Below are positions 33,501 through 49,821 of a stretch of DNA of 64,000 bases, one piece after another. The notes beneath the pieces were generated by a model. The model was not told the DNA's origin, did no database searches, and worked only from the letters and a program-made list of their open reading frames with translations. The DNA is from Dehalococcoidia bacterium (GTDB lineage: Bacteria > Chloroflexota > Dehalococcoidia > UBA2979). The stretch lies in assembly GCA_965261685.1 (NCBI GenBank), contig CBDHDI010000027.1, positions 344,808 to 408,807 on the forward strand, given 5' to 3'. Position 1 is the first letter of the stretch, and each line of letters opens with the position of its first letter. The translations under genes and the position numbers were made by a program.

Positions 33501-34163
33501 GCCGTACTTGAAGATCCGCGCCTCGCGGGTCCAGAGGTCCATGATGCCGCCCTCGTTGACGAGGTCGTCGGCGACGGACTGGATGAAGCAGGCGTGCGGC
33601 TGCGGGCGCTCGTAGGCGCTCGTCGACTGGCGCACCTCGCCGCGCTCCGGGTCGAAGTAGGAGTGGCCCTGCGAGGGGCCGGCGATGCCGTAGGCCCAGT
33701 GCAGGCCGGTGTTGAACCACTGCGGCGAGTTGGGCGCGGCGCGCTGCGTCGCCATCATCAGGATCAGCTCGTCATGGAAGGCGCGGGCGTCTTCCTCGCT
33801 GTCGAAGTAGCCGTGCTTCCAGCCCCAGTAGGTCCAGGTGCCGGCGAGGCGGTGGAAGACCTGGCCCGCGTCGCTCTCGCCGCCGGAGTCGTCGGAGCCC
33901 GCGGCGGGCTCGGAGCGCCAGAGCCACTCCGGCACGCCGTCCTCCTCGAGGGCGACGAGGTCGTCGGCGATGCCGGTCTTGCGGAAGTACTTCTGCGCCA
34001 TGATGTCGACGGCGACCTGCGACCAGCCGGCGGGCATGCGGATGCCGGCCGCCTCGAAGACGGCCGACCCGTCGGGGTTGACGATGCGCGAATCCCTGGG
34101 CGCGAAGGCGACTCCTTCGAGCGGATCCTGACCCGAGGTGGTGAAGTGTCGTTCGATGCGCAT
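30516..34163 (-). CDS. nrdJ: adenosylcobalamin-dependent (class II) ribonucleotide reductase
   Basis: Class II RNR core motifs, C-terminal Cys-rich zinc ribbon CPECG...[13 protein letters not shown]; start taken at MRIERHF. Confidence 0.9.
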
Positions 34164-41950: not shown

Positions 41951-42178
41951 CTACTCGATGTTGAGCGAGGCGCGCACGCCGGTGCGGATGCTGGCGACGT
42001 GCAGCAGCGAGCGCATCGCGTTCACCACGCGGCCCTCGCGGCCGATGATGCGCCCCTTGTCCTCCTCGGCGCATTCGAGGTGGAAGACGATCTGGTCGCC
42101 GCGCTGCTCCTCCTCGACGACAATCTCGTCGGGCCGGGAGGCGAGTGCGCGCGCGAGGTACTCGATCAGTTCTTTCAT
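41951..42178 (-). CDS. KH-domain RNA-binding protein (UPF0109/YlqC family)
   Basis: GRIIGREGRVVNAMR KH motif; conserved position between rpsP and rimM. Confidence 0.85.
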   Translation of the reverse strand: MKELIEYLARALASRPDEIVVEEEQRGDQIVFHLECAEEDKGRIIGREGRVVNAMRSLLHVASIRTGVRASLNIE

Positions 42179-42191
42179 CGGTGTCGTTTCG

Positions 42192-42512
42192 CTATGCGTC
42201 CTCGGCGGCGGCTGCGGCGGCAGCCTCGCGCTCGGCGCGGCTGGGCTTGGTCAGGCGCTGCGGCGGTGGCTCGTCGATCAGGCCCTCGCGGTGGAGCAGG
42301 CGGTGCACGGTCTCGCTGGGGCGGGCGCCCACGGAGAGCCAGTGGCGGACGCGATCTTCCTTGAAGACCAGCTCCTTCGGCTCCGAGCGCGGGTTGTAGT
42401 GCCCGATGATCTCGACGAAGTCGCCGTCGCGCGGCGCGCGCTGGTCGGCGACGACCACGCGGTAGTGCGGGGCCTTGGAGCGGCCGGTGCGGCGGAGCCG
42501 GATACGGAGCAC
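42192..42512 (-). CDS. rpsP: 30S ribosomal protein S16
   Basis: [23 protein letters not shown]... canonical S16. Confidence 0.95.
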
Positions 42513-42984
42513 GCGTTTGCCTCTCGCTCTCGCCCGCCATCGCGGGCGCTGTGAGCAGCCTACCGCGCGGGCGCGCTAACGTCAGCCTCGCGGTTGGTGG
42601 GCGATTACCCCCTCGCCCTCTGGGAGAGGGTTGGGGTGAGGGTCCGGCTGCCCCGTCGCCCGCGGTCGACACGTGACGTACGCGATGCCACGCTGGGTCT
42701 CGCTGCCGAGCGACGAGTGGAGTCCGGCCTGTGCCAACCCCGCCCCGAGAGCGACCCCCGGGCGACCCCGGCGACGTCTACTGCGACCGCCTCCAGATCT
42801 GGCTGCCCGACACCAGCTCACCGGAGTTCGCTGCCGAGGCGCATCGCCAGTCGCTGCTGGCGGCACGCAGCCCGCACGCCGAGGACGACCAGGCTTTCGT
42901 CGATTCCATCTCCGACGCGTTCGCCGACTGAGGAGGGGCCCGCGCGCCCTCGGCCCCGGCAGCGCGTCACAGCCTAGCGCTGCG

Positions 42985-43836
42985 TCAGAGTCCTTCGAAC
43001 TCCGCGAAGCTATCCGAGCCGTCGGCCTGGATGGCGTACCGAAATCGGAGTTCATCCTCAGGGTGGCCTCGGCTGTCGTCCTTGATCCCGGTCACGTGCA
43101 AGGCGGCATAGAAGCCTGCGGTGTTGCGGAGGACAGCGACCCCCCCTAACCCGACAGTTCTGGCAGGCGACGTGTAGTCGAGCGTCTCGGCATTGCTCAC
43201 CGACGAGATGGATGTGCATCTAGGCGCGAGTGCGACACCGTGGATCGATGCGGGATCGTTGTACAAGTGTATGGCGGTGTTGCTGCCCTTGCTCCACTTG
43301 GTCTCGAACTCCAGAGTCCCGTTCCCTATGACATATCTGCCGTTGTAGCTGCTGTAGTCGAACACTGCTTCGCCGGTCAAAGAACTCATTCGCGGTGGCG
43401 GTACTTCGTGAGCCTTGCCGGAGAGTCGAGGGACGCCGACCTTCTCGGCAATCATCGCTGCAAGGCCCGCTGGTGTGTGCTCCTCGGCGCGTTCGTAGAG
43501 GACATCACTCGGAAGACCTGGAACGCGTGTGTCGTCAAAGCGCACTGGCAGGATGTACTCCCTTGACTCTTGCACGGCTCGGCTCAGCGCTGCCCTTCTC
43601 TCGTGGATGGGCCACGCGCGCTCGACATAGTCCTTCGAAATGAACATAACGACGTACCCGGATCCCCGAGCGAAGACCTCCTCGAAGACCTCAGAACCGT
43701 GGGCCCCCCACAGTTGGACTCGCTCGAACCCGTCGTAGAAGACGGGTATGCCGCGAGCCTGAAGTGCGCGTGCTACTCCTTCCGCATAGGGACGTTGTGC
43801 GCCAGCAAAAGACAGCGCGACTTGGTACCGCTCCAT
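42985..43836 (-). CDS. TIR-domain protein with about 130-aa C-terminal domain of unknown function
   Basis: Bacterial TIR pattern (YQVALSFAGAQR...GIPVFYD...VVMFISKDYVERAWPIHE with conserved catalytic-position Glu); start at MERYQV. Confidence 0.65.
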   Translation of the reverse strand: MERYQVALSFAGAQRPYAEGVARALQARGIPVFYDGFERVQLWGAHGSEVFEEVFARGSGYVVMFISKDYVERAWPIHERRAALSRAVQESREYILPVRFDDTRVPGLPSDVLYERAEEHTPAGLAAMIAEKVGVPRLSGKAHEVPPPRMSSLTGEAVFDYSSYNGRYVIGNGTLEFETKWSKGSNTAIHLYNDPASIHGVALAPRCTSISSVSNAETLDYTSPARTVGLGGVAVLRNTAGFYAALHVTGIKDDSRGHPEDELRFRYAIQADGSDSFAEFEGL

Positions 43837-43885
43837 GGACCCCACCGTCACATCTGAGAGTCGGACCGGATTGCCACTCGCCGCC

Positions 43886-45220
43886 CTACAGCCCGAGCAG
43901 CCGGCCGAGGCCGCCCGCACCCTTGCCCGAGGTCATCGCCACCATCAGCTTCTTCGCCTCGCGGTACTGGTTGAGCAGGCGGTTCACGTCCGCCGGCTGC
44001 TTGCCGGACCCGGCGGCGATGCGGCGTCGGCGCGAGCCGTCGATGATCTCGGGGCGGCGGCGCTCGCCCGGGGTCATCGAAAGGATGATCGCCTCGTTGT
44101 GCTTCCAGAAGTCCTCGCCGACATCCGGGATGGCGAACTGATCCTTCATCCGGCCCGCGCCCGGCAGCATGTCGAGCAGGCCCGAGATCGGGCCCATCTG
44201 CTGCATCTGCTGCATCTGCGTGAGGAAGTCCTCGAGGTCGAACTGGCCGCGCTGCATGCGCCGCGCGACGTCCTTCATGTCGCGCTCGCCGATCGTCTCC
44301 TTCGCCTTCTCGACCAGCGACACCACGTCGCCCATGCCGAGGATGCGCGAGGCGAAGCGGTCCGGGTGGAAGGCTTCCAACGCCTCGAGGCGCTCGCCGG
44401 TGGTGATGAACTTGATCGGCAGCCCGGTCACCTGGCGCACGGACAGCACGGCCCCGCCGCGCGTGTCGGAGTCGACCTTGGTGACGACGATGCCGGTGCC
44501 CTCGACGGCGTCGTCGAAGTCGCGGGCGAGCGTCACCGCCTCCTGCCCCGTCATCGCATCGACGACGATCAGCACCTCGGTCGGGTCGATCTCGTCGGCG
44601 AGGTCCGCCAGCTCGTCGGCGAACTCGTCGTCGAGGGCGACGGCGCCGCGGGTGTCGACGATGACCGCGGTCGCGCCGGTGCGCTGCGCCTCGGCGAGCG
44701 CGCGCTTGCCGACCTGCGGCGCGGGCGCAGCGGTCTCCTCGGCGTAGACGGGCACGCCGATCTGATCGCCGAGGACGCGCAGCTGCTCGGAGGCGGCGGC
44801 GCGCTGGAAGTCGGTGGCGACGAGCAGGGGGCGCAGGCCGTCCTTCTGCAGGTGCAGCGCGAGCCGCGCCGCGAGGGTGGTCTTGCCCGAGCCCTGCACA
44901 CCGCAGACGAGGATCTTCGTCGGCCCTCGCTGCGCGCGCAGCAGCGGCTCGTTGTTGCCGCCGAGGATCTCGACCAGCTCGTCGTTGACGGCGCCGATCA
45001 CCTGCTGTCCGGGCGTGATCGACTGCAGCAGCGCGCTGCCGGAGGTGCGCTCCCGCACCCGCGCGACGAACTCGCGCACGACCTGGAAGTTCACGTCCGC
45101 CTCGAGCAGCGCGATGCGCACCTCGCGCAGCGCCGTATCGAGGTCGTCCTCGGTAATCCGCCCGCGGCTGCCGAGGCGGCCGAAGGTGGCCTGGAGTCGG
45201 GAGCTCAGGGTTTCCAGCAT
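43886..45220 (-). CDS. ffh: signal recognition particle protein Ffh (SRP54)
   Basis: N, G (GTPase motifs GVQGSGKTT) and Met-rich M domains. Confidence 0.95.
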   Translation of the reverse strand: MLETLSSRLQATFGRLGSRGRITEDDLDTALREVRIALLEADVNFQVVREFVARVRERTSGSALLQSITPGQQVIGAVNDELVEILGGNNEPLLRAQRGPTKILVCGVQGSGKTTLAARLALHLQKDGLRPLLVATDFQRAAASEQLRVLGDQIGVPVYAEETAAPAPQVGKRALAEAQRTGATAVIVDTRGAVALDDEFADELADLADEIDPTEVLIVVDAMTGQEAVTLARDFDDAVEGTGIVVTKVDSDTRGGAVLSVRQVTGLPIKFITTGERLEALEAFHPDRFASRILGMGDVVSLVEKAKETIGERDMKDVARRMQRGQFDLEDFLTQMQQMQQMGPISGLLDMLPGAGRMKDQFAIPDVGEDFWKHNEAIILSMTPGERRRPEIIDGSRRRRIAAGSGKQPADVNRLLNQYREAKKLMVAMTSGKGAGGLGRLLGL

Positions 45221-45283
45221 CGTGGGGAGTTTAGCAGCGCAGCCAGATGCGAGGTGTTATGGTGAACGTCAAGGGGACTGGAT

Positions 45284-46156
45284 ATGGTTAACGAATCAAG
45301 CGATAGTACAAATCCGTCGCGAGGCAGGGTGCCAAAGCGCCTTATATTCATCAGTCACGCGCACGCCGACCGGAAACTTGCGCAGGCGCTGCAGCGCCTC
45401 GTGCGTGCCGTCTTCGCGGGCGTCGTTGAGCCGTACGCTTCGTCGGATCCGACGCCAGGTGGCGGAATCCAGCCGGGGGAGGAGTGGGATCCGGCGATCC
45501 ACGAGCACTTGGACCGCGCTGAGGCAGTTTGGGTATTGGCCACGCCGACATCGATCACTCATCCGTGGCTCTACTGGGAGGCGGGAATAGGCCGAGCCAG
45601 AAGCCCGCACGGCGTGACCGTCCTCCGGGTGGGACTCGCTCAGGAGGAAATCCCCAGCCCGCTAAGCGCGTTCCAAGGCTTTGATGGCTTGGCCGAGGGC
45701 GACGGCGGCATGGGAGAACTGCTCAAGAAGGTCGCGGGTCAGATTGACATGGCACCTACTGCGGCACTTTTGGCCGAAGAGGTGAAGACCTGGGTCGCCG
45801 CAGCCGAAGCACACCAACCTGATGAACCAGCCTCCGAGGCGGGCTTGTCACTCACACCCGAGCACGTCAACAAGATTGAAGCTTTGATGTCCCGTATGGA
45901 ACAGTCATCCCGGGCGGTGGAGGAGTTGGTACGCATCGAAGTACACCGCCGAATCGCCCGCGAGGTTGACATGCGGATGCGTCCGCCTGTAGCGGCACCT
46001 CCCCCTCTCGAACAGCCCGTCCCCGTCGCGTCGCCTAGCCGCTTCGCGCCATCTCCCGCAGCGGTGCCGCCGGCCCCGGCCGTGCCGCGTGGTCGGCTTG
46101 GCTTGGGATTCGGCGGCGAAGATCAGTCATTGGACACTGATGATCTTCCCTTCTGA
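45284..46156 (+). CDS. TIR-like (DUF1863/TIR_2-like) domain protein with low-complexity C-terminal half
   Basis: RLIFISHAHADRKLAQAL...AVWVLATPTSITHPWLYWEAGIG pattern. Confidence 0.45.
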   Translation: MVNESSDSTNPSRGRVPKRLIFISHAHADRKLAQALQRLVRAVFAGVVEPYASSDPTPGGGIQPGEEWDPAIHEHLDRAEAVWVLATPTSITHPWLYWEAGIGRARSPHGVTVLRVGLAQEEIPSPLSAFQGFDGLAEGDGGMGELLKKVAGQIDMAPTAALLAEEVKTWVAAAEAHQPDEPASEAGLSLTPEHVNKIEALMSRMEQSSRAVEELVRIEVHRRIAREVDMRMRPPVAAPPPLEQPVPVASPSRFAPSPAAVPPAPAVPRGRLGLGFGGEDQSLDTDDLPF

Positions 46157-46170
46157 CTTGGGAGATTGAT

Positions 46171-46668
46171 ATGCCAAAGGAGAACATACGGCGCGTGGTC
46201 CGGAACGGTGATAGGGGTGGGTGGGACGTGATAAAGCCGATCGCGCATCGCGCCAGCTCGTATCACAGGACGCAATCAAAGGCCGAGGCGCGAGCGAAAC
46301 AGATCGTGTCCAACCTCGGCGGTGGCAGAGTCTTGGTAGAGGACCATGATGGCGCCCTTCATCGGGCCGTTGGCGCTCATATGACACGACTGAACTATAC
46401 TGCGCCTGCAAGAGCGGCATCCGGGAGCGAGCGCCCGTGGAGGTCCACTTCCGCACGCGCCGCCTCGAGCGCTGCTTCGAGCGCCTCGACCTCGCCATAC
46501 GCGAGTGGGGACCCGAGGTCGGTGACCGCTACGTCGAGCGAGTCAGAGCGATCCAGCGGGCGCGTGGACTCGAGTACCTCTACGGATTCCGGGCTCTCGG
46601 GCTCCATCCACTCAGAGGCGATCGGCGAGGGCAGTATGCGCTGCGGCTCACCGGCCGGATGCGGTTGA
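46171..46668 (+). CDS. DUF2188-like small protein; only the first 70 codons look genuine, 3' end uncertain because the ORF runs on and overlaps higB
   Basis: N-terminus matches the DUF2188 pattern (VVRNGDRGGWDVIKP...RTQSKAEARAKQIVSNLGGGRVLVEDHDG); the tail is low complexity. Confidence 0.4.
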   Translation: MPKENIRRVVRNGDRGGWDVIKPIAHRASSYHRTQSKAEARAKQIVSNLGGGRVLVEDHDGALHRAVGAHMTRLNYTAPARAASGSERPWRSTSARAASSAASSASTSPYASGDPRSVTATSSESERSSGRVDSSTSTDSGLSGSIHSEAIGEGSMRCGSPAGCG

Positions 46669-46733
46669 TCATCGAACAGGGAGACGATCCAGACACTGTG
46701 ATCGTCGTCGAGGTGGTGGACTATCATGGCTAG
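46437..46733 (+). CDS. higB: HigB-family toxin (RelE/ParE superfamily)
   Basis: HigB pattern (…GDRRGQYALRLTGRMRLII…VVEVVDYH); 8-bp overlap with downstream antitoxin. Confidence 0.75.
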   Translation: MEVHFRTRRLERCFERLDLAIREWGPEVGDRYVERVRAIQRARGLEYLYGFRALGLHPLRGDRRGQYALRLTGRMRLIIEQGDDPDTVIVVEVVDYHG

Positions 46734-47031
46734 CATGACAAGCATGGCGAAGCGCGTGGCAGTCTCGGACGCGGTGATCCATCCAGGCACGCTCCTCGCC
46801 GAGGAGATCGAGGCGCGCGGGATGTCGCAGCGCGAACTCGCGCTCGCCATGGGCCGGCCGCCGCAACTGATCAGCGAGATCGTCCGCGGCCGCCGAGGCA
46901 TCTCCGCGGAGACGGCCCTTCAACTCGAAGCCGCGCTCGGCACGGCCGCTCACATCTGGGTCGGCCTCGACGCCGATTACCGCCTCGCCCTTGCTCAGCG
47001 GCAGTCGCGTAGCGGCGTCTCGGTTGGGTAG
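46726..47031 (+). CDS. higA: HigA antitoxin (XRE-family HTH)
   Basis: HTH (RGMSQRELALAMGRPPQLISEIVRGRRGISAETALQLEAAL). Confidence 0.8.
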   Translation: MASMTSMAKRVAVSDAVIHPGTLLAEEIEARGMSQRELALAMGRPPQLISEIVRGRRGISAETALQLEAALGTAAHIWVGLDADYRLALAQRQSRSGVSVG

Positions 47032-47032
47032 C

Positions 47033-47302
47033 GTGGCACGGCAAAAGATCGTCCCCGACATCGCGATCCCGCCCGGCGAGCTGCTCGCCGAGGAGATCGA
47101 GGTGCGCGGGATGACACAGCGCGAATTGGCGACCCTCATGGGCCGCCCGCCGCAGGTGGTCAACCTGATCATCAACGGTAAGAAGGCAATTACACCGCAA
47201 ACCGCGATCCAGTTGGAGCGCGCACTGGGAATAGCCGCAACAATCTGGGTCGGGCTCGAGGCGCAGTACCGGCTCGCCCTCGCGCGGCGCGAGGTGGCGT
47301 AG
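47033..47302 (+). CDS. second HigA-like antitoxin (tandem paralogue)
   Basis: Same HTH pattern (RGMTQRELATLMGRPPQVVNLIINGKKAITPQTAIQLERAL); GTG start 2 nt after the higA stop. Confidence 0.7.
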   Translation: MARQKIVPDIAIPPGELLAEEIEVRGMTQRELATLMGRPPQVVNLIINGKKAITPQTAIQLERALGIAATIWVGLEAQYRLALARREVA

Positions 47303-47306
47303 CCCG

Positions 47307-48335
47307 CTACTCCAGACCGCGCTCCGCGATCAGCGCGCAGAGGTCCGCGAGGCGGCACGAGTAGCCGTACTCGTTGTCGTACCAGGCCATCGTCTTCGCC
47401 ATCCGGCCACCGTCCACCACCATCGTCGACGGCACGTCGAAGATCGAGGATCCGGGGTGGCTCTTGAAGTCCGTCGAGACCAGCTCCTCGCGCTCGGCGT
47501 AGAGGATGCCCTTCATCGGGCCGTCCGCCGCCGCCTGGAAGGCCTCGTTGATCTCCTCGACCGAGGCGGGGCGCTTCAGATCCGTTGCCAGGTCCACCAC
47601 CGAGACGGTCGGCGTCGGCACGCGGTAGGCGATGCCGGTCAGCTTGCCCTTCAGCTCCGGGACGATCTGCGCCACCGCGCCGGCCGCGCCCGTCGAGGTC
47701 GGCACGATGTTGAGGCCGGCCGCCCGCGCGCGCCGCAGGTCGCTGTGCTTCGAGTCGACGAGGTTCTGGTCGCGCGTGTAGGCGTGGATCGTGGTCATCA
47801 TCCCGCGCTCGATGCCGAACGCGTCGTGCAGCACCTTGACCACGGGCACGACGCAGTTGGTGGTGCAGGAGCCGGCGCTGATCACGTGGTGGCGGGCGGG
47901 GTCGTACTCGTCCTGGTTGACGCCGAGGATGACCATCCAGTCCTCGTTCTTGCCCGGCGCCGAGATGATCACCTTGCGCACCGAGTCGCGCAGGTGCTGG
48001 CCCGCGGTCTCGCGGTCGCGGAACGCGCCGGTCGATTCGACGACGACGTCGGCGCCCACGCTGCCCCAGTCGATCCGCGACGGGTCGTCCTCCTCGAAGA
48101 CACGCACCTCGTGGCCCTCGACGAGGAAGCGGCCCTCGCCGTTCGTGACCTCGGCGGGGAAGCGGCCGTAGTCGGAGTCGTAGCGCAGCAGGTGTGTGTG
48201 CATCGCGACCGGGCTGCGGCCGTTGATGGCGACCACATCGAAGTTGTCGCGATGGCGTTCCCACCAGGCGCGCAGGAACTGGCGTCCGGTGCGGCCGAAG
48301 CCGTTGATGCCGACACGGAGCTTCGAGGTGGTCAT
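47307..48335 (-). CDS. gap: glyceraldehyde-3-phosphate dehydrogenase, type I
   Basis: NGFGRTGR NAD motif, active site SCTTNC. Confidence 0.95.
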   Translation of the reverse strand: MTTSKLRVGINGFGRTGRQFLRAWWERHRDNFDVVAINGRSPVAMHTHLLRYDSDYGRFPAEVTNGEGRFLVEGHEVRVFEEDDPSRIDWGSVGADVVVESTGAFRDRETAGQHLRDSVRKVIISAPGKNEDWMVILGVNQDEYDPARHHVISAGSCTTNCVVPVVKVLHDAFGIERGMMTTIHAYTRDQNLVDSKHSDLRRARAAGLNIVPTSTGAAGAVAQIVPELKGKLTGIAYRVPTPTVSVVDLATDLKRPASVEEINEAFQAAADGPMKGILYAEREELVSTDFKSHPGSSIFDVPSTMVVDGGRMAKTMAWYDNEYGYSCRLADLCALIAERGLE

Positions 48336-48428
48336 GCGGTCATCCTCTCGCGGCCCGGGGAGAGGGAAGCGACGGCCTGCCCCGATTCTACCGCCTTGGC
48401 CTCTGTCCGCGAGGGGGAGGGCGGCCAG

Positions 48429-49325
48429 TCAGAGCAGGATGCGCTTCGGGGCGTCACCGGGGCGGCGGCGGAAGTTGACGATCAGGTGCCGGCGCCGCTC
48501 CTCGGCGTCCGTGTACTCCTCGAGGCGGCAGCGATCGCCGCCGGCGAGCAGCTGCTCGTTGGCGCGGACGTGCGCGACCGCCTCGTCGCGCAACTCCTGC
48601 GCTGCGGGGAAGTGCTCGCGCGCGTGCAGCGCGAGGTGCAGCTGGCTGGCGTCGATCTGCAGCAGCCAGCCGAGCAGCAGCTGCGCCCAGCCGAGGTGGA
48701 ACGCCTCGTCGGCGAAGACGAGCGGATAGCGGCGCTGGCCGGCGTCCCCGGCCGTGAACAGCGCCGTCGGCCCGAAGTTGGGACGCCCGAGGTCGCCCGC
48801 GGCGCGATAGATCGGGCGCAGCGCGGCGTCGCGGGCGATCGCCTCGCCGCCGAAGAAGTGGCCGAGGCCAACGTGCTCGGCGCGCGCCGCCTCGTCGCGC
48901 TCGTAGGCCGCGACGGCCCAGTGAGCGAAGGCGTCGGGCTCCTCGTGCAGCGCCGCCTGCGCGGCGACGTGCTCGATCGCCTGGCGGATCAGCGGGGCGG
49001 CGCTCTGGTAGGCGCCGCGGCGCACGAGGGCGACGGCGTCCGAGGCGCTGAGCAGCGCGCGGCTCCAGAGGCTGGCGAGCGCGGCCATCCGCATCGTGCG
49101 CGCCGAGGGCGTGTAGCCGCTGGCGGCGATCCGCACCTGCACGTCGAGCCCGGCCTCGAGGCGCTGCAGCTCCTCGCCGAGCAGGAAGCCGCTTTGCCGC
49201 CAGGCGTCGGCGGCCGCGGTCGAGAGCCCGTCGGGCTTGCCGGGCAGCGTCCAGCCCTCGGGCACGCGCATCCCGGACACACGCTGCGGCGGGTCGAGGG
49301 CGGGCAGGCCGCCGTTGCTGGTCAT
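48429..49325 (-). CDS. hypothetical protein (298 aa, helical)
   Basis: ORF with coding-like composition; start set at internal ATG 49325; no motif recognised. Confidence 0.4.
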   Translation of the reverse strand: MTSNGGLPALDPPQRVSGMRVPEGWTLPGKPDGLSTAAADAWRQSGFLLGEELQRLEAGLDVQVRIAASGYTPSARTMRMAALASLWSRALLSASDAVALVRRGAYQSAAPLIRQAIEHVAAQAALHEEPDAFAHWAVAAYERDEAARAEHVGLGHFFGGEAIARDAALRPIYRAAGDLGRPNFGPTALFTAGDAGQRRYPLVFADEAFHLGWAQLLLGWLLQIDASQLHLALHAREHFPAAQELRDEAVAHVRANEQLLAGGDRCRLEEYTDAEERRRHLIVNFRRRPGDAPKRILL

Positions 49326-49434
49326 GCCGGCATTGTGGCGGATCGGCGGGGAACGGGGCAGGCTCGCGCCCTCCCGGTCGCCGCCGATGCTACGATCCGC
49401 CGTGCGACCGCTCTCACGCCGAACGGAGCTGCCG

Positions 49435-49821
49435 ATGACGACCGCAGCGGCCGATGCCACCCGCGTCTTCGCCGACGCCCGCCGGATGCAAGAGTCCGCC
49501 CTGCGGCGGATGGCGGCCGGTGACATCCGCGACGCGGCGGAAAAGGCGTGATGCGCAGCCAAACGCGCCACCGACGCGCTGATCCTCGCCCGTACCGGCG
49601 AGGAGCCCCGGCGCTCCACGGACACAGGCAGCGGACTGCGCGCACTTGAGCGGGTCGAGCCGGACGCCGGTTCCCTGCGCGCTCGCTACTACGAGCGGCA
49701 GGGCGCCCTCCACGGCGAGTGCTTCTACATCGGCCTGTGTGAGCCCGTCGAGGGTATCGAACGCCTGATCCGCGAGACCGCCGACTATATCGAGGACGCC
49801 CGGCGGCTCGCCGAGGTGTGA
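49435..49821 (+). pseudogene. HEPN-domain gene with an in-frame TGA (49549-49551) at the conserved AEKA[W] position
   Basis: Continuous frame either side of the TGA gives a HEPN pattern (DIRDAAEKA*CAAKRATDALILARTGEE...); TGA is one substitution from TGG. Confidence 0.5.

Follow-up and report, generated by a model that had tools for sequence, protein, structure and literature searches.

We analyzed a 64,000-nucleotide stretch from a Dehalococcoidia bacterium (contig CBDHDI010000027.1, positions 344,808 to 408,807; the whole stretch is hereafter called the window), in which a small group of accessory genes lies between ffh and gap. The five open reading frames (ORFs) that a preliminary description of this DNA had placed here are all present in the ORF listing at the same coordinates. 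They encode a TIR-domain protein (TIR2), a DUF2188-like protein, a HigB toxin (HigB1) and two HigA antitoxins (HigA1 and HigA2), while a second TIR gene (TIR1) and a MazE-like gene are found on the other side of ffh (Table 1). The elements are of known kinds: a candidate stand-alone TIR protein, a HigBA pair and a hotspot flanked by core genes. The interval between ffh and gap, named slot A, is best read as a mosaic of four independent pieces in a recombination hotspot, and we consider the explanation of it developed below to be probable.

Table 1. Features of the ffh region and their positions in the window
Feature	Position	Strand	Description
MazE-like orphan antitoxin	42731-42931	+	66 aa; Pfam PF11455, 47.9 bits
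Slot B cargo (TIR1 cassette)	42934-43878		Other side of ffh, toward rpsP
TIR1 gene	42985-43836	-	Pfam TIR_2
ffh	43886-45220	-	Start codon at 45220
Slot A (variable cargo, ffh-gap)	45238-47300		Bounds from blastn breakpoints against relatives
TIR2	45284-46156	+	290 aa, divergent from ffh; ORF listing, Pfam TIR_2
TIR2, TIR domain	45335-45688	+	About residues 18-135; profile and AlphaFold 2 (AF2) model
TIR2, putative catalytic Glu99 codon	45578-45580	+	Motif inside the TIR_2-matched segment
TIR2, helical region and long helix			Residues 143-175 and 192-232; AF2 model
TIR2, disordered Pro/Gly-rich tail			Residues 233-285, then C-terminal tip DDLPF
TIR2, DDLPF tip and stop codon	46139-46156	+	Resembles the C-terminal tip of SSB
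DUF2188 ORF	46171-46668	+	165 aa; PF09954; genuine part is codons 1-70 (46171-46380)
higB1 leader	46381-46436	+	Kept in relatives; right-hand junction of the DUF2188 insert
HigB1 toxin	46437-46733	+	98 aa; GTG start; C-terminal end VVDYHG
HigA1 antitoxin	46726-47031	+	101 aa; stop TAG 47029-47031; TIGR02607
HigA2 orphan antitoxin	47033-47302 (ORF from 46991)	+	89 aa from GTG 47033; TIGR02607
HigA2, alternative start	TTG 47024	+	Would give 92 aa
gap	Stop codon at 47307	-	

When species-representative genomes were scanned with Ffh, the matches were Dehalococcoidia metagenome-assembled genomes (MAGs) whose Ffh is 70-98% identical to that of the window, and exact-protein look-ups added further loci (Ffh 81-99% identical). 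All compared loci, numbered here with the prefix L, share one backbone: eno, a DUF5677-like gene, gap, slot A, ffh, slot B, rpsP, KH and rimM. Slot A has 11 different contents in 12 related ffh loci, and its genes are quite different even in relatives with Ffh 94-99% identical. On the left edge, blastn homology is lost at 45235-45237 against L008, L009, L010, L011, L089, L092 and L093, which sets the breakpoint 17 bp upstream of the ffh start codon. On the right edge, it resumes at 47287-47302, just before the gap stop codon, against L008, L009 and L010. L011, L089, L092 and L093 share HigBA sequence with the window, and homology to them resumes inside slot A.

The window carries the five genes TIR2, DUF2188, HigB1, HigA1 and HigA2 in this slot. 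L005 has TIR2 (64% identity), HigB1 and HigA1, and L011 has HigB1 (97%) and HigA1 and nothing else. In L089 and L090 there is a TIR2-family gene (44% identical) with a higB1 stump and a frame-shifted HigA1, followed by a 99-nt copy of the gap 3' end and then a different HigB-HigA pair. L092 contains an AlbA_2 fragment, a 329-aa protein, a 227-nt gap fragment, HigA1 and HigA2; L093 a 347-aa protein, a HigA fragment, a gap fragment and a HigB3-HigA2 pair; and L094 IS21 genes, HigA1, a gap fragment and HigB3-HigA2. The remaining cargos are three small winged helix-turn-helix genes with a Hypoth_Ymh/HEPN gene (PD-Lambda-3_B) in L008, an OLD/AriA/GajA-like ATPase of 592 aa in L009, a DndB/DpdB-like protein in L010 and an MFS transporter in L012. 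L014 is empty. In the ffh loci of relatives the backbone is kept and the cargo differs. Slots A and B are recombination hotspots exchanging accessory cargo, and form no core operon. Base composition agrees with the earlier proposal of a small accessory defence/toxin-antitoxin islet flanking ffh. The G+C content is 0.60-0.67 over the region against 0.70-0.77 in the flanks, and G+C at third codon positions (GC3) is 0.68-0.70 in TIR1, TIR2 and DUF2188, 0.78 in HigB and 0.84 in the HigAs, far below the 0.93-0.96 of the core genes (ffh, gap, rpsP and the DUF5677-like gene).

Duplicates of the gap 3' end, 96-227 nt long and with 88-100% amino-acid identity, lie between the stacked HigA and HigBA cassettes (L089, 9295-9393; L092, 3451-3677; L093 and L094, 3544-3639); the window has none. 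These repeated fragments look like scars of cassettes that were inserted serially at the end of gap. The simplest explanation of cargo exchange is that DNA, once taken up, recombines homologously with the conserved flanks (ffh and gap), and occasional illegitimate joins would have given rise to the gap fragments. At the bounds of slot A in the window we found no direct or inverted repeats, tRNA or integrase; promoter and terminator consensus scans of 45150-47400 found none, and an Rfam scan of 42000-49000 detected no RNA family. IS21-family transposase genes (rve and IstB) and a DDE transposase fragment are present on the ffh side of the slot in L094 (1-3131), so insertion sequences reach the ffh locus too. 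The 329-aa protein of L092 (2448-3437) and the 347-aa protein of L093 (2177-3220) had no Pfam or PADLOC match and are candidate cargo genes of the hotspot.

Defence hotspots flanked by core genes and without mobility genes are a feature of Pseudomonas, Vibrio and E. coli pangenomes. Slot A resembles them in its preserved housekeeping flanks, its sharp shared breakpoints and its many alternative defence-like cargos (OLD/Gabija-like ATPase, DndB/DpdB-like, Hypoth_Ymh/HEPN, TIR and toxin-antitoxin genes). However, the slot described here, next to ffh of an uncultured Dehalococcoidia lineage, is tiny (0-2 kb) and has HigBA cassettes stacked with duplicated gap 3' fragments between them.

The HigB-HigA-HigA order given in the preliminary description was confirmed. 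Both HigAs passed TIGR02607 (67.4 bits for HigA1 and 55.8 bits for HigA2, cut-off 47.7), while HigB1 is borderline and was recognised by PDB matches and motifs. Its five best matches in the PDB sequence search are all HigB proteins, matched over their full length with E-values of 0.0075-0.028, the top four being from Proteus vulgaris. It keeps LHPLRGDRRG in the alignment and the C-terminal DYH, whose residues D-Y-H we take to be the catalytic ones of P. vulgaris HigB. The toxin gene is upstream and overlaps higA1 by 8 nt. The two genes stay together in L011 (identities of 97% and 90%) and in L005 (76% and 90%), and HigA1 is 87-91% identical to the HigA of L011, L005, L089 and L092. HigB1-HigA1 is therefore an intact type II toxin-antitoxin pair in which, by homology, HigB1 would be a ribosome-dependent mRNA endonuclease and HigA1 its neutralising repressor. 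The pair is similar to HigBA of P. vulgaris (Rts1 type) in the toxin lying upstream of an HTH-XRE antitoxin, in the 8-nt overlap, in having P. vulgaris HigB and HigA as its best PDB sequence matches and in the retained LHPL.GDR.G and DYH motifs. It differs in that HigB falls under the Pfam cut-off and in that a second, orphan HigA follows directly.

HigA2, which has PDB HigA matches down to an E-value of 1.9e-9, had been described as a duplicated antitoxin. This does not hold, since HigA2 is 92.6% identical to the antitoxin of L093 and L094 and 61% identical to HigA1 at the protein level. In L093 and L094 an intact HigB of 98 aa (HigB3, 66% identical to HigB1) overlaps the ortholog by 8 nt, and gap comes next after the ortholog, just as in the window. 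Homology between the window and L093 starts at about 47024-47029, in the last codons and the stop of the HigB3 gene. With an intact HigB3-HigA2 pair in these relatives and homology starting in the toxin end, HigA2 is an antitoxin orphaned from a second HigBA cassette. Homologs of HigA2 were found at 92-99% identity, and L092 shares the HigA1-HigA2 junction of the window (colinear, 94.5% from 46703), although HigB1 is lost there. The ratio of nonsynonymous to synonymous substitution rates (dN/dS) is about 0.4 when HigA2 is set against the HigA1 group and 0.12-0.17 within the HigA1 orthologs, which indicates an intact but distinct gene and no pseudogene. A recent tandem duplication of HigA1 would account for the adjacent genes, the 289-nt start-to-start spacing, the 76% DNA identity over 128 nt and the parts of HigA2 (RELATLMGRPPQV) that resemble the HigA1 type. 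Yet HigA1 orthologs remain 87-91% identical even when the distant L005 is included, the 92.6% identical copy has its own intact HigB, and the DNA homology to the L093 cassette begins in toxin codons, so that we find a duplication decidedly unlikely.

HigA2 became an orphan through a deletion that took out the HigB3-type toxin gene and the associated gap 3' scar. Its GTG is located 1 nt after the HigA1 stop, and the protein is probably translated by coupling to HigA1. HigA2 could act as a spare "anti-addiction" antitoxin that blunts incoming HigB3-type cassettes. In the alignments, the 3' end of HigA1 has a one-base shift relative to the ancestral stop and ends at the old HigB3 stop. The HigA1 tail SRSGVSVG was also compared with the C-terminus of the L089 HigB2, SRNGVTVE, and this origin was rejected by a local-alignment shuffle test (score 12, shuffle mean 14.5); just the last ~8 nt (GGGTAG) align, with the HigB3 end of L093.

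In slot B, blastn homology to L008 and L009 breaks off at 42933 and is regained at 43879. The window, L010 and L089 have the same segment, with TIR1 (78-83% identical) and an orphan MazE-like gene. TIR1 is also present in L092 and L093, which end inside the gene and leave the MazE-like side outside. L008 harbors an intact MazE-like and PemK/MazF pair, L009 a MazE-like gene with a truncated PemK, and the slot is empty in L005, L011 and L012. In the window, L010 and L089 the TIR1 cassette, on the opposite strand, stands where the PemK toxin would be. Beside ffh, the MazE-like gene is a second antitoxin, after HigA2, that has survived the loss of its toxin.

TIR1 matches Pfam TIR_2 with 54 bits. 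The two TIR proteins bracket ffh in the window and in L089, and cooperation between them, as a split sensor/effector pair, had been raised as a possibility. Each of the two genes nevertheless occurs without the other among the relatives. L010, L092 and L093 have TIR1 but no TIR2-family gene, and L005 has TIR2 but no TIR1; in L089 the TIR2-family gene is 44% identical to that of the window, while TIR1 is 83% and Ffh 99% identical. The genes also sit in separate cassettes on opposite strands with an essential gene between them. TIR1 and TIR2 are independent, and a split pair is extremely improbable.

The DUF2188 ORF starts 14 nt after the TIR2 stop codon, with a GGGAG Shine-Dalgarno sequence before its ATG. 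It matches PF09954 with 35.4 bits (cut-off 22) over residues 8-62, corresponding to profile positions 2-55 of 62, and the PADLOC model PDC-S16 with an E-value of 7.8e-8. As had been noticed earlier, the frame runs on through higB, which is read in another frame. Complete DUF2188 proteins would have about 70-95 aa, a conserved C-terminal segment and their own stop codon, whereas this ORF is 165 aa long. Only two close homologs came up: P0018, the closest (82 aa, 57% identity), and P0019 (94 aa). In P0018, ...GGGEVVIHDRQGQ is followed by IRDSDTVPPGHDPYPPKDQKH, where the window copy has ...GGGRVLVEDHDGALHRAVGAHMTRLNY... instead. The part missing from the window comprises the conserved C-terminal 15-20 residues and the stop codon, and translation of 46330-46445 in all three frames gives no trace of the conserved tail (in the closest homolog ..DSDTVPPGHDPYPPKD). 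Homology to the higB leader starts at 46408 against L011 and at 46374-46380 against L089 and L093 (blastn, with an alignment for L011). Since leader homology begins right after codon 70 and the tail is missing, the 3' end and the stop codon were lost at a recombination junction. The DUF2188 gene is truncated at its 3' end, and this copy is most likely a decaying remnant. Its frame is open across higB because off-frame stops are rare in G+C-rich DNA, and L011, too, has no stop in this off-frame stretch over higB.

The run-on frame could also be an assembly or sequencing indel in a long-read MAG, the real gene being intact, and correction by a 1-bp indel had been suggested in the preliminary description. 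Long-read assemblies carry homopolymer indels, the related records resemble long-read metagenome assemblies by their contig names and sizes, and TGA stops are available at 46382 and 46391 in frame 2. A one-base repair was rejected, however, as no frame encodes the conserved ...DP.PP.D tail and the leader sequence shared with L011, L089 and L093 begins exactly where the domain stops. The higB leader directly after codon 70 leaves no room for the missing 3' end, which makes an intact gene very improbable.

The N-terminal part of TIR2 had been assigned to a TIR-like/DUF1863 pattern. The TIR assignment stood, with 32.6 bits against Pfam TIR_2 (PF13676, cut-off 28) over residues 21-134, but DUF1863, now ThsB_TIR (PF08937), scored 13.5 bits, below its cut-off of 21.2. 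The relatives P0013, P0024 and P0009 score 25-30 bits with TIR_2. With PADLOC the best matches were weak (TIR-TM and ThsB, about 25 bits), the ThsB models ranging over 11-25 bits. The AF2 model has a mean predicted local distance difference test (pLDDT) score of 75 and shows a beta-alpha TIR-like core (mostly >85, with two loop blocks near 61-62), the long helix and a disordered tail. Foldseek matched it with probability 1.0 to PdTIR (3h16), BtpA (4lzp), the SPARTA TIR (8u72) and TcpB (4lqd), and a B. cereus TIR protein (8fz9) was also among the matches. Target TM-scores were 0.56-0.68 for single-domain TIR chains and 0.45-0.68 over bacterial and eukaryotic TIR structures.

A word-indexed search found 16 relatives of TIR2, all annotated as TIR or unnamed, and the two with an organism name come from Chloroflexota MAGs. 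An exhaustive profile search gave 58 representatives at E-values up to 1e-30, of which about 35 (representatives at 50% identity) have the full architecture. The N-terminal domain is highly conserved in the family alignment (IFISHAHADR ... SSDP.PGGGIQPG.EW ... VWVLAT..S...PWLYWEAGIG). W95 and E99, in the motif PW(95)LYWE(99)AG, are invariant in 16/16 members, and from its W-x3-E spacing we take this motif to correspond to the TIR_2 consensus SpWcreE, the catalytic-glutamate position of TIR NADases. The TIR domain is followed in the family by a helical region, and this by a long helix that is conserved (LTPE.V.R.EAL..R.E). In most members a C-terminal domain of about 90 aa comes next; it has no Pfam match and no fold match and is lacking in the window TIR2 and its L005 ortholog. 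The TIR2-family profile gave no significant match to PDB sequences, and TIR-domain matches in phage and plasmid collections were distant at best (23-36% identity). Away from ffh, the family gene is solitary among unrelated genes in L001, L002, L006, L007 and L091, and no DUF2188, HigBA or second TIR gene was found beside it in these loci.

Between the TIR domains of the window and the L005 ortholog, the proportion of nonsynonymous differences (pN) is 0.14 and that of synonymous differences (pS) 0.75, with synonymous sites saturated, while synonymous divergence (dS) of ffh is 0.34. This indicates that TIR2 is under purifying selection, strong in the TIR domain, and that the alleles are older than the split of the genomes. 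L089, the nearest relative by Ffh (99%), has a TIR2 allele 44% identical to that of the window, and L005 (Ffh 81%) one 64% identical; this mismatch points to allele exchange.

We read TIR2 as a candidate stand-alone TIR NADase-type defence protein, from a small uncharacterised family. It shares with known proteins of this type (SpbK of ICEBs1; PADLOC TIR-TM and PDC-S66) the single gene, the N-terminal TIR domain, the position of the catalytic Glu, a non-enzymatic C-terminal part, the lack of a conserved partner gene and the variable accessory locus. The similarity to SpbK is confined to the first strand motif (E-value 0.7 in PDB and 0.0012 in PADLOC), and the window TIR2 has, in place of the C-terminal domain of its family, a Pro-rich disordered tail ending in DDLPF. 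TIR2 is predicted to act as a self-contained abortive-infection enzyme. An infection trigger would lead to self-association through the long helix 192-232, which would assemble the TIR active site around Glu99, and cleavage of NAD+ would result in abortive infection or growth arrest. The disordered tail with DDLPF may serve as a regulatory or recruiting handle. Every biochemical activity named here, and any defence role of the locus, is one that we infer.

TIR2 and DUF2188 could instead form a two-gene Thoeris-like system, in which TIR2 makes a nucleotide signal and DUF2188 is the effector. TIR2 shares with Thoeris ThsB the TIR fold, weak PADLOC ThsB matches (24.7 bits) and the B. cereus TIR structure 8fz9 among its fold matches. 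The short spacing of the two genes with the Shine-Dalgarno sequence ahead of the second, their similar GC3 (0.68 for TIR2 and 0.69 for DUF2188) and the status of DUF2188 as PADLOC candidate PDC-S16 fit such a system. For 33 TIR genes, Yirmiya et al. (2025) name a neighbouring DUF2188 protein as putative, predicted effector, and DUF2188 occurs in CapH/CapP-regulated operons (Lau et al. 2022). A further point in its favour is a locus in L088 (873-1773), where the DUF2188 homolog P0018 is directly upstream of a gene with a PycTM domain, a Pycsar effector type, and of a 272-aa gene. However, DUF2188 neighbours TIR2 in none of the eight other loci of the family (L001, L002, L005, L006, L007, L089, L090 and L091), and in L005 the TIR2 ortholog abuts higB directly. 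The conserved adjacent effector of Thoeris is absent in nine TIR2-family contexts, and the sole neighbour candidate, the DUF2188 of the window, has lost its C-terminal end and stop codon. The ThsB_TIR match is below threshold, and by their motifs (WDVFLSHA...) the TIRs that the preprint pairs with DUF2188 seem to be of another type. A Thoeris-like system is accordingly unlikely, and a self-contained TIR2 is the reading that we prefer.

Several points weigh against the mosaic reading as a whole. Some occupants of slot A are not defence genes (the MFS transporter of L012) or cannot be annotated (the 329-aa and 347-aa proteins). A TIR2-family gene adjoins ffh in four loci (window, L005, L089 and L090), and TIR2 may be a long-standing resident allele series and not a recent arrival. 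TIR2 exceeds the TIR_2 cut-off by just 4.6 bits. The Foldseek E-values are modest (1e-4), with similar scores for other flavodoxin-like folds. Without the C-terminal domain of about 90 aa, the window TIR2 could be a degenerate form. HigB1 reaches 18.8 bits against the Pfam model HigB-like_toxin (PF05015, RelE/ParE superfamily), under the cut-off of 27; the HigB paralog of L089 obtains 24.9 bits with the same model.

As a mosaic, the locus shows the turnover of small defence/toxin-antitoxin cassettes beside essential genes in an uncultured Dehalococcoidia lineage. Depending on the close relative, the same 2-kb slot has OLD-like, DndB-like, HEPN-like, TIR or HigBA cargo, and antitoxins outlast their toxins, as with HigA2 and the MazE-like gene. 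Annotations should be corrected on three points: the 165-aa "DUF2188" ORF should be marked as a truncated remnant, the second HigA as an orphan, and the TIR genes as independent.

One unusual feature of the locus is the C-terminus of TIR2, ...PPVAAPPPLEQPVPVASPSRFAPSPAAVPPAPAVPRGRLGLGFGGEDQSLDTDDLPF, that is, ...LDTDDLPF followed by the stop codon. It resembles the C-terminal tail of SSB (which binds single-stranded DNA), in which a disordered Pro/Gly-rich linker precedes the tip D-D-D-[IL]-P-F (SSB-Ct), DDDIPF in E. coli and DDDLPF in Firmicutes, that recruits many genome-maintenance proteins (PMC5531588, PMC5872125). The tail of TIR2 likewise has a disordered Pro/Gly-rich linker (pLDDT <50 in the AF2 model) and then an acidic D-D-L-P-F at the extreme C-terminus. 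In TIR2, unlike SSB, the tip hangs on a TIR domain and not on an OB fold. In the six frames of the window, the pattern [DE][DE][LIVM]PF before a stop is found only at the end of TIR2, and 0/7864 other stop-to-stop segments in 1 Mb of fetched loci end in it. The tip recurs in five family members, being seen in the relatives P0002, P0024, P0013 and P0029. The L005 ortholog has a different Pro-rich linker and the same ending, LELDDLPF. P0024 of L089 has the C-terminal domain and ends in ALDDLPF, P0013 ends in DPDDLPFE, with an extra E, and P0029 in GDSIPF. Three very divergent alleles beside ffh (44-64% identity) thus keep the tip, whether or not the C-terminal domain is present.

In our searches of the literature, no TIR or defence protein was reported to end in an SSB-Ct-like tip, and no ssb gene was found in the window or the fetched loci. 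An LPF ending is a ClpXP degron in Streptococcus mutans (PMC5143411). It is doubtful that the TIR2 family carries a genuine SSB-Ct mimic linking a TIR NADase to the SSB interaction network. In such a case, the tip could tether the TIR enzyme to replication or repair proteins that bind SSB-Ct or, alternatively, phage proteins that capture host SSB tails could trigger the TIR; either would give an immune effector a new means of monitoring DNA replication. The SSB-like tip is a lead rather than a result, and offers a concrete hypothesis that is cheap to test.

Two other features of the window lie outside the islet. Between gap and eno, on the reverse strand (48429-49625), is a gene for a 398-aa protein with a sub-threshold match to DUF5677 (22.9 against 27.1 bits). 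The protein is 60-99% identical in the examined relatives that carry the eno-gap segment and its GC3 is 0.93; the gene belongs to the backbone. At 33636-33730 on the forward strand, ARAGORN calls a 95-nt "tRNA-???" with a four-base anticodon (gcga).

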